Assembly (NCBI GenBank): GCA_044869275.1
Contig: JBIOXB010000029.1
Span: 1-32,578, forward strand
Direction: 5' to 3'
DNA length: 32,578 nt
DNA from: a bacterium
GTDB taxonomy: Bacteria; Zhuqueibacterota; Zhuqueibacteria; Zhuqueibacterales; Zhuqueibacteraceae
Positions 540 to 8,436 of the stretch are shown piece after piece. The position numbers were made by a program, and so were the translations under genes. How positions within the stretch are numbered: the stretch's first letter is position 1; each line of letters starts with the position of its first letter. Below the pieces are notes generated by a model. It worked only from the letters and a program-made list of their open reading frames with translations. It had not been told where the DNA came from and made no database searches.

Positions 540-960
540 GCTCAATGCTTCATTACTTCTGTCATCCCGACCCTACAGTATTGCCTCGAGGCAAGCTGGC
601 AAAGCGCTGGTGACGCGACGCCGACAAAAGTCATTGAGTTTTTCGCAAAACTCCTGTGCTTGCGGTATAGATGTATGAAACCTCACGCGCAAAATCGCAG
701 AGTAAGAATATTCTGTGAGGGAAGGATTCCCACCGAGGACGGACCCTCCTTATTTTTCCAAAATCTCCAACGTTGCAAACCATTCTCTCTCTTGGCTGCG
801 AGGGGGAGTATCGTTTAACCCTTTGCGGCGCTCGCTCCATTTTTCCAGCGTAAGTCTTTCTTCCTTTGCTCGAGGGCGCCCGCGCGGTGAATGGCGTTCA
901 AACGAATTCATGTTTACGCCATTCCCTTGATATTCCATGGTTTTCTTTCGGAGGCTTGTC

Positions 961-3900
961 ATGTCAAATGCTACTGGCTGCGCCTATAGCCATCGTAGAT
1001 TCAAATCGCTGGGCTGGGCGGTGTGCAGCGTGCTGTGTTGCCTGCTTTTTTCGCCCGAGCTTTATGCCATATCACAGCCACCGGCGGCGCCGAGCGCGCT
1101 GGCGGCGAACGCTGCAAGCAGCAGCCAGATTGATCTCGTGTGGACGGACAATTCCAACAACGAAGATGGATTCATCATCCAGCGCAGCACAACTTCAGGC
1201 AGTGGCTTTATCGATGTCGACACGGTAGCTGTGAACGAAACGAGCTTCTCAGATGTAGGACTGAGCGAAAAAACCACATATTATTATCTCGTGGCCGCCT
1301 ACAAGACGAATGACAGATCCAACTCCGGCGAAGCGAATGCCACTACACTGCTGGCGGCGCCAAGCAGTCTGAACGCCACGACCGCGAGCAACACGCAAAT
1401 CAATCTCACCTGGACCGACAATTCCGGCATTGAGGACGGCTTCAAAATCGAGCTCAAAACCGGAGCGGGAGGCACATATGCGCAAATTGCGACCGTAGGC
1501 GCGAATGCAATCAGTTATGGCAGCAATGGCTTGAATCCCAACACGACCTACTATTTCCGCGTGCGCGCTTTCGATGGAGGCGACAATTCGGCTTATTCCA
1601 ACGAAGACAGCGCCACGACGCATCCCAATCCGCCGGCTGCGCCTGGCGATTTGACCGCGACCGCCGTGAGCAATAGTCAGATCAATTTGGCGTGGACGGA
1701 CAACTCAAGCAATGAGACCGGCTTCAAAATCGAGCGCAAACTCACGTCGGCGGTCAATTTCACCCAAATCGATACCGTGGCGGCGGGCGTGACCAGCTAT
1801 GCCAGCACGGGTCTGGCCACGACCACGAGTTACACTTATCGCGTGCGCGCCTACAACGCGGGCGGCAATTCGGCTTATTCCAACCAAGCGAGCGCCACGA
1901 CGTTGATTGATCCGCCGCCCGCGCCCAGCGGGCTGACAGCGACGACGGCGAGCAACAATCAAATCAATCTGAGCTGGGTGGATAACGCCTCGACGGAGAC
2001 TGGCTTTCGCATCCAGCGCAAGACCGGTGCCGGCGGCACGTATGCGCTCATCGCGTCGGTGGGCGCGAATGTTACGATTTATGCCAGCACTGGTTTGAGC
2101 GGCAACACGGAGTATTTCTACCGCGTGCGCGCGTACAACGCGGGAGGGCAATCAGCCTTTTCCGGTGAGGACAACGCGACCACGCTCGAAGATCCGCCGG
2201 CGGCGCCCGGCAATTTGCGAGCCACGGCCGTGAGCAATGAACAAGTCGATCTCGTGTGGACGGATCTTTCGGTTAACGAAGCCGGCTTCAAAATCGAAGT
2301 CAAAGCCGGCGCCGGCGGCACCTATGCCCAGCTGGCGACGAACGGCGCGAACGACAGTACGTTTACGAGCACGGGCCTCGAGGCTGATACGGAGTATTTC
2401 TATCGCGTGCGCGCTTTCAATGGCACCGGCAACTCGTCCTATTCCAACGAAGACAGCGCCACCACTCTGCCGGAGCCGCCGGAAGCGCCGAGCAATTTAA
2501 GCGCAACCGCCGTGAGCAATACCGGGATCGATCTCGCGTGGAACGACAACTCGAACAACGAAGACGGCTTCAAAATCGAACGCAAATTGACCTCCACCGT
2601 CACGTTTTCCCAAATTGCCACCGTGGCTGCGAATGTGACAAGTTATGCGAGCACAGGGTTGCTTGCAGACACGAGTTATACATATCGTGTGCGTGCCTAC
2701 AACGCGGCCGGCCATTCGGCTTATTCGGCAGAAGCCAGCGCCACCACGCTGCCGAATCCACCTGCCGCGCCGAGCGGCCTGAACGCCACCACCGTGAGCA
2801 ATACTGAAATCGATCTCGCGTGGAATGATAATTCCGGCAGCGAGACCGGTTTTCGCATCGAGCGCAAAGCCGCGGGTGATGCCGCGTTTACAGAGATCGC
2901 CACGACCGGCGCGGGCACGACGAATTATGCGAGTACCGGCCTGAGCGGCAGCACCGAGTATTTTTATCGCGTGCGCGCCTACAACACCGGCGGCAACTCG
3001 AGTTACTCGAATGGGGCGAGTGCCACGACTCAGCCGGATCCACTGGCCGCGCCGAGCGGCTTGAGCGCAAACACGGTCAGCAGCTCGCAGATCGATCTCG
3101 CTTGGATCGACAACTCGAACAACGACGCGGGCTTCAAGATCGAGCGCAGAATTCCCTCCACACCGAGCTTTACCATGATTGCAATCGTCGGCGCCAATGT
3201 GACGAGTTATGCGAACACGGGCTTGGCAGGGAGTACGATCTACATTTACCGTGTCCGCGCCTATAACGCCTTTGTGCATTCGGGTTATTCCAATGTGGCC
3301 CGCGATACGACCTTGCTCGCGGCACCCGCCGCGCCGGGCAGTCTGATCGCCACGGCGGCAACCAACACGCAAATCAATCTCGCCTGGACGGATAACGCCA
3401 ACGACGAGATTGGTTTCAAGATTGAGCGCAAGCGGGAGAGCGATAGCGCATATGCGGAAATAGCAGCAATCGGCGCGAATATTACCAACTACGCCAGCAC
3501 GGGTTTGAACGGGAATGTCGTCTATCACTATCGTGTGCGGGCTTTCAATGCTGGCGGCCATTCGGCTTATTCCAATGCCGACAGCGCGTTGACCCTGTTG
3601 AAGGCTCCTTCCAATTTGGCGGCCACGGCAATCAGCGGCAGCCAGATTGATCTCACCTGGATCGATGGCATCTCCAATGAATCCGGCTTCAAAATCGAGC
3701 GCAAAACGGGCGTGGCAGGTGTGTATGCCCAGATCGCTATGGTCGCGGCGAACGCGACCAGCTACTCGAACACCGGATTGGCGGCCAGCACTGAGTATTT
3801 CTATCGTGTGCGCGCTTTTAGCGCGATCAATATCTCGCCTTACTCCAACGAGGACGGCGCCACGACTCAGGAGGTTCCGGCCGCACCGGACAGCCTCACT

Positions 3901-5310
3901 GCCACAGCCGTGAGCAACACGCAGATCGACCTCTCGTGGCTGGACCAATCGTCCAACGAGGATAGCTTCAAGATCGAGCGCAAGACCGGAGTTGCAGGCA
4001 CGTTTGCGCAAATTGCAGCAGTGGGGCCGAACGTGACGAGCTATGCCAACACCACCGGTTTGAACGCGAATGTCACGTATTTCTACCGCGTGCGCGCCTA
4101 CAACTCCGGTGATCATTCGATTTATTCCAACCAAGCGAGCGCGAAGACCTTGATGAAGGGCCCCACGAATTTGACCGCCGCGGCGGTCAGCGGCAGCCAG
4201 ATCGACCTCAACTGGGCGGATGGCGTCGCGAACGAGACCGGCTTCAAAATCGAGCGCAAGACCAGCCCGGCGGGCACATATGCGGAAATTGCAACGCTTG
4301 CTGCCAACGCCATAAGCTATTCGAATACCGGATTGTCGGCCGGCACGCAGTACTATTATCGCGTGCGCGCCTTCAACGCGAGCAGCACTTCGGCCTATTC
4401 GAACGAGGATGAAGCGACCACCCTGGGTGTGCCGCTCGCGCCGGACAGTCTCACCGCCACCGCGGTGAGCAACGCGCAGATCAATCTCACCTGGCTGGAT
4501 CAGTCGTCTGATGAAGACGGTTTCAAGATCGAGCGCAAGACTGGAGTCGCGGGCACGTTCGCACAAATTGCGGCGGTGGGCCCCAATGTGACGAGCTACG
4601 CGAACACCACCGGCTTGAGCGCGAATGTCTATTACATTTACCGCGTGCGGGCGCACAACTCCGGCGGCCATTCGAGTTATTCCAATGAAGCTGGAGCGAA
4701 GACTCTAATCAAGGAACCTGCAAATCTAGTGGCCACCGCCATCACCAACAGCCAAATTGATCTGACGTGGAAGGATCAATCCGCGAACGAAACCGGCTTT
4801 AAGATTGAGCGCAAAACCGGACTCGCAGGCACGTTCGCCGAGATCGTCACACTGGGTGCAAACGCGACGAGCTACTCGGATACCGGCCTGGCCACGGGCA
4901 CGCAATATTTTTATCGCGTGCGCGCGTTTAACGCGGTCAACGTCTCAGCCTATTCGAATGAAGATGAAGCCACGACTTCTGGGCCTGCCAAGTCCAGCCC
5001 AGCGGACACCAGTGCGATAGTGGGGGACAAGGGTGCAGCGATTCCCGAGGGCATCGCGCTTGCGCCAAACTATCCCAACCCCTTCAACCCTTCGACCACG
5101 GTTTCCTTTACGCTGGCCGAAGGCATGCACGTGAAGCTCTCCGTGATCAACGTGCAAGGCCAGGTCGTCGAGGTCTTGGTGAATGGCTATCGTGCCGCGG
5201 GCACGCATCGCAAAACTTTCAAGGCGGCAGACTTGCCTTCCGGCGTTTATTACGCAGTTCTCAAGGCAGGCGCGATGACGCGGGTGCAAAGCATGTTATT
5301 GACAAAGTAG
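961..5310 (+). CDS. Secreted fibronectin type III repeat protein (14 FN3 domains) with T9SS/Por-type C-terminal sorting domain
   Basis: GGAGG at 950-954 precedes ATG 961. Hydrophobic signal-like N-terminus, 14 copies of L.W.D.S.NE.GF.I...Y.YRVRA.N, and C-terminal PNYPNPFNPSTTVSF...LPSGVYY...MLLTK. Confidence 0.92.
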   Translation: MSNATGCAYSHRRFKSLGWAVCSVLCCLLFSPELYAISQPPAAPSALAANAASSSQIDLVWTDNSNNEDGFIIQRSTTSGSGFIDVDTVAVNETSFSDVGLSEKTTYYYLVAAYKTNDRSNSGEANATTLLAAPSSLNATTASNTQINLTWTDNSGIEDGFKIELKTGAGGTYAQIATVGANAISYGSNGLNPNTTYYFRVRAFDGGDNSAYSNEDSATTHPNPPAAPGDLTATAVSNSQINLAWTDNSSNETGFKIERKLTSAVNFTQIDTVAAGVTSYASTGLATTTSYTYRVRAYNAGGNSAYSNQASATTLIDPPPAPSGLTATTASNNQINLSWVDNASTETGFRIQRKTGAGGTYALIASVGANVTIYASTGLSGNTEYFYRVRAYNAGGQSAFSGEDNATTLEDPPAAPGNLRATAVSNEQVDLVWTDLSVNEAGFKIEVKAGAGGTYAQLATNGANDSTFTSTGLEADTEYFYRVRAFNGTGNSSYSNEDSATTLPEPPEAPSNLSATAVSNTGIDLAWNDNSNNEDGFKIERKLTSTVTFSQIATVAANVTSYASTGLLADTSYTYRVRAYNAAGHSAYSAEASATTLPNPPAAPSGLNATTVSNTEIDLAWNDNSGSETGFRIERKAAGDAAFTEIATTGAGTTNYASTGLSGSTEYFYRVRAYNTGGNSSYSNGASATTQPDPLAAPSGLSANTVSSSQIDLAWIDNSNNDAGFKIERRIPSTPSFTMIAIVGANVTSYANTGLAGSTIYIYRVRAYNAFVHSGYSNVARDTTLLAAPAAPGSLIATAATNTQINLAWTDNANDEIGFKIERKRESDSAYAEIAAIGANITNYASTGLNGNVVYHYRVRAFNAGGHSAYSNADSALTLLKAPSNLAATAISGSQIDLTWIDGISNESGFKIERKTGVAGVYAQIAMVAANATSYSNTGLAASTEYFYRVRAFSAINISPYSNEDGATTQEVPAAPDSLTATAVSNTQIDLSWLDQSSNEDSFKIERKTGVAGTFAQIAAVGPNVTSYANTTGLNANVTYFYRVRAYNSGDHSIYSNQASAKTLMKGPTNLTAAAVSGSQIDLNWADGVANETGFKIERKTSPAGTYAEIATLAANAISYSNTGLSAGTQYYYRVRAFNASSTSAYSNEDEATTLGVPLAPDSLTATAVSNAQINLTWLDQSSDEDGFKIERKTGVAGTFAQIAAVGPNVTSYANTTGLSANVYYIYRVRAHNSGGHSSYSNEAGAKTLIKEPANLVATAITNSQIDLTWKDQSANETGFKIERKTGLAGTFAEIVTLGANATSYSDTGLATGTQYFYRVRAFNAVNVSAYSNEDEATTSGPAKSSPADTSAIVGDKGAAIPEGIALAPNYPNPFNPSTTVSFTLAEGMHVKLSVINVQGQVVEVLVNGYRAAGTHRKTFKAADLPSGVYYAVLKAGAMTRVQSMLLTK

Positions 5311-5440: not shown

Positions 5441-6505
5441 ATGTCGAGATCGAAAAAACGCAAAGCCAAGCAGGCAGGCTTGCCACCGGGCACGTTGATT
5501 CACGTGGGTGAACAGAAAACCGCGCGCATCAAAATCACGTTGACGAATTACGACGAAACCGGCGTCCGCGAAAAGGAAATAAAGGCGGCGGAGGAATGTT
5601 TTCCGTTTCGCGATCTGTCTGCCGTCACCTGGATCAACATCGACGGATTGCATGACGTAGAGACCATCGCCAAGATCGGCCAGCATTTCGGCCTACATCC
5701 GCTGGTGCTGGAAGACATTGTCAATACCGAGCAACGCCCTAAGCTGGAGGACTTCGGCCAGTATATTTTCATCGTCACGAAGATGCTGAGCTACGATGAA
5801 AAACTGGACAAAATCCAGGCCGAGCAGATCAGCTTCGTGCTGGGCTCGAATTTCGTGATCACGTTTCAGGAGGGCGGCGAAGACGATTTCGCTCCAGTGC
5901 GGGCGCGCTTGAAAAATGAAAATAGCCGCCTGCGCAAGATGGGGGTTGATTATCTCCTTTATACGCTGATCGATGCTGTTGTTGACCGTTATTTTGTGGT
6001 GCTGGAAAAGACCGGCGAGAAAATCGAGGAAGTCGAAGAGCTGCTGTTGTCTCTGCACGCGCAAGCCAACCTGCACAGGATTCACGATCTGCGCCGCCAG
6101 ATGATTCTCTTGCGCAAGGCCATCTGGCCGCTGCGCGAAGTCATCACCGCGCTGGCACGCCGGGAAACGCCGCTGATCCAAGAGACAACGGCGATCTATC
6201 TGCGCGACGTTTACGATCACACCGTGCGCTTGATCGACACCGTGGAAAGCAATCGTGAATTGCTTTCGGTGCTGATGGATATTTATCTCACCAGTCTCAG
6301 CAATCGCATGAATGAAGTGATGAAAGTCTTGACGATCATTTCGACCATCTTCATGCCGCTGACCTTCATTGCCGGCATTTATGGCATGAATTTCGAGCAC
6401 ATGCCGGAATTGCGCTGGCGCTGGGGCTATCCGCTCATCCTGGCGCTGATGTTCTTATTGGGAATCGGGATGCTGATCTTTTTCAAAAAGCGCAAGTGGA
6501 TTTGA
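5441..6505 (+). CDS. corA: Magnesium/cobalt transporter CorA
   Basis: GLPPGTL N-terminus, HPLVLEDI, QRPKLED, and two C-terminal TM helices with the signature GIYGMNF..MPEL. Confidence 0.96.
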   Translation: MSRSKKRKAKQAGLPPGTLIHVGEQKTARIKITLTNYDETGVREKEIKAAEECFPFRDLSAVTWINIDGLHDVETIAKIGQHFGLHPLVLEDIVNTEQRPKLEDFGQYIFIVTKMLSYDEKLDKIQAEQISFVLGSNFVITFQEGGEDDFAPVRARLKNENSRLRKMGVDYLLYTLIDAVVDRYFVVLEKTGEKIEEVEELLLSLHAQANLHRIHDLRRQMILLRKAIWPLREVITALARRETPLIQETTAIYLRDVYDHTVRLIDTVESNRELLSVLMDIYLTSLSNRMNEVMKVLTIISTIFMPLTFIAGIYGMNFEHMPELRWRWGYPLILALMFLLGIGMLIFFKKRKWI

Positions 6506-6515
6506 CTCCTCGCTT

Positions 6516-6869
6516 ATGCCCGCTATGTCAGATTATTTTTTGACCATCGATGTTGCCCATCCGCCGCGGCCACCTGCGCGTGTGGAAGCCGAGCTGCAAG
6601 CCGCGCTGATGCAGGTGCGGAACTCGAAGCAATGGCGGGTGATAAAAGTCATTCACGGCTACGGCAGCCACGGCAAGGGAGGCTCGACCAGGGAAACCGT
6701 GCGCGATTGGGCTTATAGATTCCGCCGCCATTTCCGCGCGATAATTAACGGAGAGGATTACAGCATCTTCGATGACGACACCCAGGCGATGCGTGGAGAG
6801 TGCGGCCAACTTGGCGATACTGACTTGGGCGCCTCCAATCCCGGTATTACCATTTTCTGGGTCAAATAG
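6516..6869 (+). CDS. Small stand-alone Smr-domain protein (start may be 6525)
   Basis: T.IDVAH...VIKVIHGYGSHGKGG...NPGITIFW resembles the Smr motifs (LDLH, IHG.G, G.T.V.L). Confidence 0.75.
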   Translation: MPAMSDYFLTIDVAHPPRPPARVEAELQAALMQVRNSKQWRVIKVIHGYGSHGKGGSTRETVRDWAYRFRRHFRAIINGEDYSIFDDDTQAMRGECGQLGDTDLGASNPGITIFWVK

Positions 6870-7037
6870 CGGAGGGCAGAGGGCATGGCGCATAGCGCAT
6901 AGCGCGGAGGGCAAAGAGCGGGGGGCAGAGCGCAAAGCATGGATCGCTGTCTGCTTGATCTCTGCCCTCAGCCTTTTGCTCTCTGCCCTCTGCCCTCCGC
7001 GCCATGCGCTTTGCTCTCTGCCCCTCCGCCCTCTGCT
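6869..7037. repeat. Head-to-head 7-bp tandem repeat palindrome
   Basis: About 10 units such as gcggagg/gcagagg/gcatggc/gcatagc (6869-6938), a short spacer, then about 10 complementary units such as gccctct/gctctct/gcgccat. Confidence 0.85.
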
Positions 7038-7114
7038 GATTTCCAGCCCAAAATTGGCACATTGAAGTTTCAATTTCGTTTTTGCAATTCGAAATCGCAA
7101 GACTGTCTCACTCT

Positions 7115-7129
7115 GCAAACACATTTTGC
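7115..7129. promoter_or_regulatory. Candidate enhancer (bEBP upstream activator site)
   Basis: Inverted repeat GCAAA-N5-TTTGC about 135-150 bp upstream of the sigma54 motif, a typical UAS distance. Confidence 0.35.
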
Positions 7130-7199
7130 CCACTAAATCTTGCCCCTGTTGCGATCGTAATAGACTATAGGTATGTCCCCGCGTTTTTCATATTCGAAA

Positions 7200-7212
7200 A
7201 AACAATGGTTTG
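7200..7212 (+). promoter_or_regulatory. Candidate IHF site
   Basis: AAACAATGGTTTG has one mismatch to WATCAANNNNTTR. It lies in an AT-rich stretch between the candidate UAS and the sigma54 promoter. Confidence 0.35.
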
Positions 7213-7260
7213 TGGTGGCTGCCACAAAAAACTCTCGTCTAAAGAGAAAATCGGAACGTT

Positions 7261-7276
7261 CGGCACGTCACTTGCT
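7261..7276 (+). promoter_or_regulatory. Sigma54 (RpoN) -24/-12 promoter
   Basis: CGGCACGTCACTTGCT: GG (7262-63)-N10-GC (7274-75) matches TGGCACG-N4-TTGCW at all but the first base. Predicted start is about 7287. Confidence 0.75.
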
Positions 7277-7286
7277 TAGACATAAA

Positions 7287-7874
7287 GTAGATTGGCGCTG
7301 ATCAGGACGGCGAGCGACAGTCTGATGGCGTCCACGGAAATGCGTGGCTGGTTTCAAGATGATTGGAATTGCTTGGGCGAATAAGGATGTTCGCGGTAAA
7401 GCACCACGCAGAGGGACGCTTGGCAATCGCCTGAACGGGCAAATGCCTTTATCAACGCGACAGGATGTTCGCGGCATTCCGTCCGGCCCAATGGCGCGGG
7501 TCAACTCAAACTTGAGTGGCTAGAGCTCCTCCTTCATGGCGAGCAAGGACGTTCGCCGATTCCGCGCCTGAGCCGGACGCCGATTTCAAGATTCACACGG
7601 TCGCGCTGAGAAGGATGATCAGCGCGTTGCTCCTGAGTCCGGCAATGCTGTGCAGGGATGCTATCAGCATTGTGGCATGAACACCTCGCCGCTGAGTGCA
7701 AGCTCAACGGTTCTTTTCCCGAATGCATTGCCGGACAGCCAATCTCGAATTTCTGCGAATCCTGCGGGGTATCGTAGAATTTTCATATAGATTCACGCGC
7801 CTTAACCGGCGCGTGCTGATTGTGGCTCCCCCTCACAGCCAAGAGGCTCGGGTCGAATGACCCGGGCCTTTTTT
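7287..7874 (+). ncRNA. Putative CsrB/RsmZ-like GGA-repeat small RNA
   Basis: No credible ORF. Bounded by a sigma54 promoter and an intrinsic terminator. Eight GGAYG motifs (GG starting at 7305, 7385, 7414, 7463, 7547, 7575, 7613, 7656), six of them at apices of predicted stems. Confidence 0.7.
7844..7874 (+). terminator. Rho-independent terminator
   Basis: aggctcgggtc-gaat-gacccgggcct followed by a T run on the + strand. It abuts the stop codon of the convergent thioredoxin-fold gene. Confidence 0.85.
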
Positions 7875-8436
7875 ATTCTGACGCCTTCCACTTGATATTG
7901 CACCCCATACTCGGCTTTTGCTCCGCACTCACCGGTTTGCCCTCCAGAACGTTATCCAGCGCCGCGCGCATGTCTTTGCCGGTCACGGGGATATTATTTT
8001 TCGGCCGGGAATCGTCACATTGCCCGCGATAGACGAGACGCAGCGCCCCATCAAAAATGTAGAAATCCGGCGTGCACGCGGCTTGATACGCTCGGGCAAC
8101 GTCTTGCGATTCGTCAAACAGATAGGGGAAAGGATAGTTCAGGTGCAATGCGACTTCCTTCATTTTCTGCGGCGAATCTTCGGGATAAGCGACGACATCG
8201 TTTGAGCTGATCGCAATAAATGAAATGCCCCTCGCCTGATAGTCCTGGGCCAAGCGTATCAGTTCGTGCTGCACATGCTTGACATAAGGACAATGATTGC
8301 AGATGAACATCATCACGGTGGCAATGTTCGATTTCAAATCCGCCAATGACAGCCATTTCCCGCTAACGGTATCCGGTAGCTTGAATTCTGGGGCAATGGT
8401 GCCAAGCGGCAGCATGGTGGATGGGGTTTGGGCCAT
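7873..8436 (-). CDS. Thioredoxin-fold / AhpC-TSA (PRX-like) family protein
   Basis: APEFKLPD, FICNHCPYVKH, AISSND, YPFPYLFDESQ.VARAY.AACTPDF, SMGCNIKWK; GGAGG RBS. Confidence 0.92.
   Translation of the reverse strand: MAQTPSTMLPLGTIAPEFKLPDTVSGKWLSLADLKSNIATVMMFICNHCPYVKHVQHELIRLAQDYQARGISFIAISSNDVVAYPEDSPQKMKEVALHLNYPFPYLFDESQDVARAYQAACTPDFYIFDGALRLVYRGQCDDSRPKNNIPVTGKDMRAALDNVLEGKPVSAEQKPSMGCNIKWKASE

Follow-up and report, generated by a model that had tools for sequence, protein, structure and literature searches.

Can a small RNA (sRNA) act as a sponge for CsrA in a bacterium whose csrA gene adjoins fliW? Sponges of this kind control CsrA in Gammaproteobacteria, and FliW does so elsewhere. 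The question is raised by positions 7261-7874 of contig JBIOXB010000029.1 (assembly GCA_044869275.1), a stretch of 32,578 nt, hereafter the window, from an uncultured soil member of candidate division KSB1 (Zhuqueibacterota). A first-pass annotation had seen there a lone locus for a sigma-54-driven, CsrA-sequestering RNA, and had named as tests a csrA and an rpoN gene in the genome, GGA loops kept in orthologues and transcription of the interval. The RNA at 7287-7874 proved to belong, as its longest member, to a multi-copy family of KSB1 sRNAs that has 3-8 copies in each genome, so the single-locus view has to be replaced by that of a sigma-54-driven family. That this RNA titrates CsrA is a reading to which we give an even chance.

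Transcription Unit

The interval 7261-7874 is a real non-coding transcription unit. The proposed sigma-54 promoter at 7261-7276 is near-consensus, matching TGGCACG-N4-TTGCW at all but its first base, and the plus-strand intrinsic terminator that had been placed at 7844-7874 is recovered as a stem followed by a U run (Table 1). Regarding coding capacity, the longest open reading frames (ORFs) of the interval have 54-78 aa and none is credible, in agreement with the earlier claim; no reading frame is conserved between genera within the RNA, mismatches with the same-genus orthologue are not three-periodic (26, 21 and 18 by codon phase), and indels comprise one, two and three bases. The gene downstream is convergent. 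It had been allowed that a protein or a known Rfam family might explain the region, and neither was found: no protein explanation emerged, no Rfam family reached its gathering score in the window, and a search of 6850-7950 at E-values up to 10 returned no Csr/Rsm model (CsrB/CsrC and RsmX/Y/Z, which we take to be RF00018, RF00084, RF00166, RF00195 and RF02144).

The sRNA Family

The last ~60 nt of the RNA are 90-98% identical in all 18 genomes of the host's taxonomic family, in several copies each; the full-length RNA, among 61 related genomes, was found only in G001, of the same genus (87% identity; 87-89% as an orthologue). The family-defining 3' module presents, on a 3-bp stem, an 11-nt C-rich loop that is invariant in 39 distinct copies, as are, or nearly so, the module columns CCCCUCACAGCCA. 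Across 39 copies, 99.5% of the terminator helix is paired and four of its pairs have changed on both sides; slid-alignment controls gave 17-54%. A covariance model of the module scored at least 50 bits in 13/13 sampled genomes of the taxonomic family, in the host genome and in three sister-family genomes; beyond the order the hits were weak (at most 41 bits) and are probably generic terminators, because several lie on both strands of one place.

The host genome carries three copies (in the window and on contigs C45 and C217), with predicted RNAs of ~589, 147 and 250 nt, each behind a sigma-54 element. Throughout the family, the predicted lengths cluster at ~94-111, 141-167, 229-257, 341-383 and 574-615 nt; the copies differ in body sequence and have no terminal repeats, and most short members pair one AGGA hairpin with the C-rich loop. 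Short members also occur in tandem arrays of two or three, 130-510 nt apart (G008:C72, G016:C111, G017:C651, G004:C109/C128 and the metagenome locus L130), and the module of four of the shortest, L089, L090, L097 and L098, reads GGCA in place of GGCU. The loci of G001 (L005, L029 and L096, the orthologue and two paralogues) and of G014 (L013 and L031, a tandem pair and one copy) are unpublished, and the main counts are also given without them.

An orthologue of the 117-aa ORF that precedes the RNA lies directly upstream of the window paralogue in four genera, as seen by tblastn, and the positional orthologues behind it measure 249-252, 341-376, 574-575 and 586-589 nt; the long form thus represents an expansion and occurs in two genera. 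An exact 21-mer occurs in public records named candidate division KSB1, Candidatus Zhuqueibacter and Candidatus Coneutiohabitans. These KSB1/Zhuqueibacterota relatives, together with a type IX secretion system (T9SS) sorting domain in the window, bear out the FCB-like lineage that had been suggested, the KSB1 phylum being placed in the FCB superphylum in the excerpted text of a published study (PMC11683472). The locus defines a well-supported sRNA family for KSB1, as judged by promoter and structure, by the paralogous copies and by the RNA libraries that contain it.

GGA Motifs and Hairpins

The eight GGAYG motifs that had been reported within about 360 nt were counted again, at 7305, 7385, 7414, 7463, 7547, 7575, 7613 and 7656, against a mean of 1.85 in dinucleotide shuffles of 7287-7874, one of which in 5000 reached eight; five AGGAYG compare with 0.34 expected, a number reached by none of 5000 shuffles. 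The three copies of AGGAYGTTCGC were likewise found, at 7384, 7462 and 7546. Within the 6.67-Mb genome the RNA is the sole non-repetitive, non-coding cluster with at least seven GGAYG per 360 nt, the other six clusters being simple tandem repeats or an acidic ORF. Seven sites match the consensus RUACARGGAUGU at 8/12 or more with GGA fixed (0.91 in shuffles, 0/2000 reaching seven), where this consensus, obtained by SELEX (systematic ligand evolution through exponential enrichment), is that of E. coli CsrA as excerpted from a review (PMC7652899), not of the host's own protein, and the match expresses motif likeness only. Hairpins with GGA in the loop number eight, compared to 3.7 in shuffles (4/200 as high), and a similar excess is seen in the second-genus orthologues. 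Moreover, when the 64 trinucleotides are ranked by their enrichment in the hairpin loops of 61 sRNA bodies, AGG (z 10.6) and GGA (z 9.9) come first by a wide margin and CAG (z 5.6) next, these z-scores being inflated by the relatedness of the 61 members.

All six GGA hairpins described earlier (H1-H6, Table 1) fold locally as proposed, and the sixth is not conserved in the second genus. In the window RNA, H1-H5 stand at RNA positions 20, 100, 178, 262 and 328, ~80 nt apart, and in three orthologues of the second-genus type at 27-28, 97-112, 168-189, 256-280 and 315-352, the orthologues of the second genus and of metagenome contigs being 574-615 nt long. The long-form orthologues all keep H2-H5, and H1 is seen at the same RNA position in each of them but L163. 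At RNA position ~20-28 the orthologues have an AGGA-loop hairpin as the counterpart of H1, and most paralogues have one close to the 5' end; the stems of H1 differ between orthologues and are not alignable in register, so H1 is given without pair counts.

Base pairs were counted in seven orthologue rows, namely the window, G001, G010, G004 and the metagenome contigs L124, L163 and L175, and again without the unpublished G001; a full-length MAFFT alignment, which misaligned H3, was excluded. The GGA is invariant in H2-H5 across the seven. For H2, 42/42 pair cells are paired (36/36 without G001) and two pairs vary on one side only; H3 has 33/35 (29/30), with two of five pairs changed on both sides in either count; H4 has 46/49 (39/42), with one-sided changes only; and H5 has 54/56 (47/48), with four of eight pairs changed on both sides in either count. 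Slid-alignment controls gave 17-52% paired. The GGA loops are thus kept in orthologues, with compensatory stem changes in H3 and H5, which is the result that had been called for. As for the GGAYG motif itself, its GGA is kept and its Y varies, with GGAAG in close orthologues.

Sigma-54 Control

The pattern GG[CT]A[CT]-N5-TTG[CT] precedes 62 of the 67 distinct copies with enough upstream sequence (57/63 without the loci of G001 and G014), and 0/69 in the reverse-complement control. A sigma-54 element also precedes 20/20 further, more divergent copies, as well as 49 of the 58 copies from metagenomes for which 400 nt or more lie upstream; the three tallies overlap in organisms and are not independent. 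Among four sister-family copies (L023-L025 and L027), only one shows the strict pattern. In copies of genus g2 (e.g., L019, L021, L046 and L052), the -12 part of canonical TGGCAC-N5 promoters reads TTGT, not TTGC.

The host genome has rpoN, as had been looked for, and 48 matches to the activator domain PF00158, 46 of them strong, none of which belongs to a gene beside its three sRNA loci. For a genome of 6.7 Mb, a sigma-54 regulatory repertoire with 48 such matches is unusually large. The features of a sigma-54-dependent sRNA are present, with GG-N10-GC at sRNA distance, rpoN and activators, use of the promoter being predicted. Further upstream, an AT-rich near-palindrome with its adjoining box (7082-7111) is a candidate binding site for the sigma-54 activator, and related AT-rich near-palindromes lie 150-200 nt upstream of the promoters of most family members; scanning the genome with a guessed palindrome gave no information, as the window's own site alone lay near a promoter.

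CsrA, FliW and the Flagellar Genes

The single csrA of the host genome (85.2 bits; C243:38177-38329) lies directly after fliW (C243:37781-38134), and both genes occur in 15/18 genomes of the taxonomic family, the three without them being 59-79% complete; the csrA that had been asked for is thus present. Because csrA adjoins fliW, sRNA and FliW coexist in this genome, and the contrast that had been drawn between an sRNA sponge and FliW falls. The protein has 95 aa, with N55 and a C-terminal extension of ~40 aa, which are marks of FliW-type CsrA in the excerpted text of a 2026 paper (PMC13407953). In the wider sample, csrA is present in 45/61 relatives and strong matches to the module come from one family plus a part of its sister family; as csrA spreads well beyond this clade, its co-occurrence with the sRNA is uninformative.

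Flagellin (PF00669) was not found in the host genome, which is 94% complete, and turned up in 1/18 genomes of the taxonomic family, compared to 8/10, 4/4 and 5/5 in three related families. Similarly, no rod/hook domain PF00460 was found in the host genome, and 1/18 family genomes has it, compared to 8/10 in a related family. The neighbours of fliW-csrA are non-flagellar and variable in 7/7 loci of this family (the host's included) and in two non-flagellated sister-family genomes, the HD/OB-fold gene upstream of fliW in the host not being conserved in the other six; in one flagellated relative, fliW-csrA follows flgK-flgL. Nor did the 94%-complete genome yield an Hfq. A question posed by the locus is which role FliW-CsrA has in a cell that lacks flagella.

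Presence in RNA Libraries

Parts of 7200-7900 are present in 24 listed runs from 14 studies, 22 of which are on record as RNA. Contigs from four RNA libraries of four studies cover 7313-7532, 7328-7656, 7341-7598, 7341-7617, 7328-7685 and 7686-7836, several differing from the window at only 2-4 positions; as to transcription, the contigs thus lie on 7313-7685 and 7686-7836. Some of this variation falls on the closing pair of H5, where 7602 C>A with 7626 G>T gives A-U and 7602 C>G with 7626 G>T gives G-U. No contig end marks an end of the RNA. Neither 6400-7312 nor the downstream gene is covered by RNA contigs, save for a 35-nt conserved piece from other organisms; the missing flank coverage is no evidence of silence, since this stretch itself served to select the runs and rare sequence is lost from contigs.

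Favoured Reading and Its Alternatives

As a CsrA-titrating RNA, the ~590-nt transcript would be made from the sigma-54 promoter with the help of an enhancer-binding activator and ended by the intrinsic terminator. H1-H5 display loops of the type A(A/G)GGA(N)G, the CsrA/RsmA recognition element. When the activator fires in response to its presumed signal, the RNA would accumulate and bind dimers of the genome's single CsrA, free CsrA would fall and CsrA-controlled mRNAs would be relieved, titration being its proposed main function. The short paralogues would be lower-capacity versions, and the family would provide an sRNA input alongside FliW in a clade without flagellin, the usual input of FliW. 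From the earlier claim of a CsrA-sequestering RNA, whose proposed checks all turned out favourably, the sigma-54 unit, the GGA hairpins and csrA are retained; the low site density, the coexistence with FliW and the C-rich loop shared by the family qualify it, and CsrA binding is a prediction from the sequence. A broader view, which we regard as tentative and somewhat doubtful, is one of rewiring: the ancestral flagellin-FliW-CsrA switch of a KSB1 family without flagella may now have sigma-54-driven GGA-hairpin sRNAs (3-8 per genome, ~95-590 nt) as an input acting with FliW on one CsrA, with the C-rich loop possibly serving as a second active site, either a pairing seed or a handle for regulated decay.

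Several observations weigh against titration. Five conserved sites in ~590 nt are a density far below that of CsrB with its 22 GGA, as given in the excerpted review (PMC7652899), and plain GGA is not enriched in 7287-7874 (11, compared to 11.4 in shuffles). In the minimum free energy (MFE) fold of the whole RNA, to which little weight was given and which was kept out of the pair counts, only four GGA have an unpaired probability of at least 0.9 and several are paired. The orthologues are essentially two deep lineages and therefore hold few independent covariation events. A strict requirement for GGA is argued against by the varying Y of GGAYG, by H6, which is kept in orthologues of 84-89% identity and replaced in the second genus, by the H4-like hairpin of genus-g3 orthologues, which has no GGA, and by paralogues of ~94-98 nt (L089, L090, L097 and L098) without any GGA. 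In addition, the most conserved element of the family, the C-rich loop, has no role in a sponge; the host's CsrA is of the FliW type, treated as sRNA-independent in the excerpted literature (PMC13407953); and library contigs cannot give strand, ends or level.

The conservation of the C-rich loop leads to the main rival, a family of base-pairing sRNAs in which this loop is the seed for G-rich, Shine-Dalgarno-like mRNA sites and the GGA hairpins are handles for CsrA as matchmaker or protector, the long RNA being a multi-handle version or a sponge and base-pairer at once. We consider it unlikely, though it is compatible with a sponge, and on either view CsrA is linked to sRNAs in a lineage that has FliW. 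Only the loop and its flanks stay the same from paralogue to paralogue and throughout four genera, every copy has the loop, even those free of GGA, most short members join it to one AGGA hairpin, and SR1 of B. subtilis offers a precedent with CsrA in the excerpted text of its report (PMC6546359). As Hfq was not found, another helper would be needed for base pairing. Regarding targets, the only genomic site complementary to the C-rich module (19/20 bases) is at window 789-808 on the plus strand, ~130 nt upstream of a 1457-aa FN3/T9SS-tail ORF (937-5310). This site is absent from 18/18 genomes of the taxonomic family, and the search, which cannot judge short seeds, found no conserved target; 12-mers complementary to the loop are rare, with 13 at up to one mismatch, four of which are the RNA genes and the 789-808 site, and show no excess; the duplex with 16S rRNA is not special (-26.0 kcal/mol, compared to a shuffled mean of -27.8); and five conserved, regularly spaced GGA hairpins exceed the needs of a handle.

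That the AGGA loops are bound by a partner other than CsrA, be it the anti-Shine-Dalgarno of 16S rRNA in a ribosome decoy or another RNA-binding protein, with csrA a bystander, appears improbable. CsrA sites resemble Shine-Dalgarno sequences by nature, the host's own 16S rRNA ends in CCUCC, to which AAGGA is partly complementary, and the spread of csrA far beyond the clade with strong module matches leaves co-occurrence silent on the point; the motif, however, extends past the Shine-Dalgarno core to the A(A/G)GGA(N)G context of CsrA sites in 5-9-nt loops with short closing stems, and seven sites reach at least 8/12 of the SELEX consensus. Presentation in a closed hairpin loop is described as a CsrA signature in the excerpted review (PMC7652899). 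It seems highly improbable, finally, that the interval is no independent RNA at all and instead a leader or long 3' untranslated region, the mRNA of a small protein, a repeat or a mobile element. The synteny of the 117-aa ORF in four genera, plus-strand ORFs of 54-59 aa and the multi-copy module would suit such an origin, but its own sigma-54 promoter is conserved in paralogues whatever their neighbours, a ~170-nt palindrome separates the RNA from the 117-aa ORF, no frame is conserved and indels are of one, two and three bases, the next gene is convergent, and the copies differ in body sequence and carry no terminal repeats.

Feature Coordinates and Neighbouring Sequences

Table 1. Coordinates of the RNA unit, its hairpins and associated features in the window.
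Feature	Position	Strand	Remarks
117-aa ORF	6516-6869	+	Synteny anchor; may lie outside the mechanism
AT-rich near-palindrome TTGCAATTCGAAATCGCAA and box CTGTCTCAC	7082-7111 (7082-7100 and 7103-7111)	+	~165-195 nt before the -24 element
Sigma-54 type -24/-12 promoter CGGCACGTCACTTGCT	7261-7276	+	GG 7262-7263 and GC 7274-7275, 12 bases apart
Predicted transcription start	near 7286-7288	+	
Predicted non-coding RNA	7287-7874	+	~588 nt (~590); longest family member
H1	7296-7312	+	CAGGA in loop; local fold
H2	7377-7394	+	Loop AAGGAU; 10/12 match to the E. coli CsrA SELEX consensus
H3	7456-7473	+	CAGGAUG in loop; local fold
H4	7538-7557	+	Loop AAGGAC; local fold
H5	7602-7626	+	Loop GAAGGAUGA; local fold
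H6	7643-7672	+	Long hairpin with GGGAU; folds well (z -3.4)
Family-defining 3' module	7820-7846	+	GGC/GCC stem, 7824-7826 with 7838-7840; loop UCCCCCUCACA; then AAGAGG
Intrinsic terminator, full stem	7841-7872, U run to 7874	+	14 pairs (8 G-C)
Intrinsic terminator, feature row	7845-7874	+	10-bp stem, GAAU loop, U6

For the 117-aa ORF the sole domain match is a weak one to Smr, with an E-value (0.0049) that misses the cut-off. The palindrome between it and the upstream element of the RNA (6867-7036, ~170 nt) is imperfect and made of G/C-rich short repeats, and related pieces are found on other contigs (C170, C117, C172 and others); miRNA-like Rfam matches at 6867-7036 reflect this long palindrome only and were rejected. 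Gene-end hairpins of (TGGATGG)n followed by (CCATCCA)n, on C74, C128, C165, C170 and C244, are apparently a recurrent intergenic element of the host genome.

Comparison with Known Systems

According to an excerpt from a 2020 review, it "remains to be determined" if FliW and sRNAs work side by side in any species (PMC7652899), and the excerpted 2026 paper assigns FliW-type CsrAs to bacteria without such sRNAs (PMC13407953). In the literature searched, mostly titles and abstract openings, no CsrA-binding sRNA was found in a FliW-type or FCB lineage, nor one driven by sigma-54, and no sRNA work on KSB1. The locus thus offers a testable candidate, in which a FliW-type CsrA meets a conserved set of RNAs with GGA hairpins that is driven by a different sigma factor; the host phylum is an uncultured one of the FCB group, and its clade is one where flagellin was not found.

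With the flagellin switch of FliW and CsrA (hag of B. subtilis, flaA of C. jejuni), the host shares the adjoining fliW and csrA, the N55 and extension of CsrA and a GGA-loop hairpin as the ligand. It differs in that flagellin, rod and hook genes were found neither in its own genome nor in 17/18 family genomes, in the non-flagellar context of fliW-csrA, and in the GGA hairpins being carried by dedicated non-coding RNAs instead of a flagellin leader.

Among sigma-54-driven RNAs, CrcZ and CrcY of Pseudomonas depend on CbrB and are protein sponges with A-rich motifs for Hfq/Crc. The KSB1 RNA resembles them as a sigma-54-dependent RNA of several hundred nt with repeated protein-binding motifs, for which titration is proposed here, and differs by its GGA loops and by Hfq not having been found. 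Meanwhile, Qrr1-5 of Vibrio are multi-copy sRNAs under sigma-54 and LuxO that work through base pairing with the help of Hfq and lack arrays of GGA hairpins; the likeness to them, by description, lies in paralogous sigma-54 sRNAs with an invariant segment by the terminator and short members of ~100 nt.

The closest comparison is with the CsrB/Rsm RNAs, which are likewise non-coding, with their own promoter and an intrinsic terminator, with paralogues of differing length, a series of hairpins whose loops carry (C/A)AGGA(N)G and a cognate csrA. The KSB1 RNA differs from them in having no sequence or structure match, a site density that is far lower, a C-rich 3' loop that does not vary and a host of the FCB group with a FliW-type CsrA, as well as in its sigma-54 promoter, compared to the dependence on BarA-UvrY/GacA (UvrY/GacA homologues and GacA boxes were not searched for). 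In its proposed working the KSB1 RNA is like CsrB/Rsm, but it is not a member of that group, from which homology, promoter type and site density set it apart.

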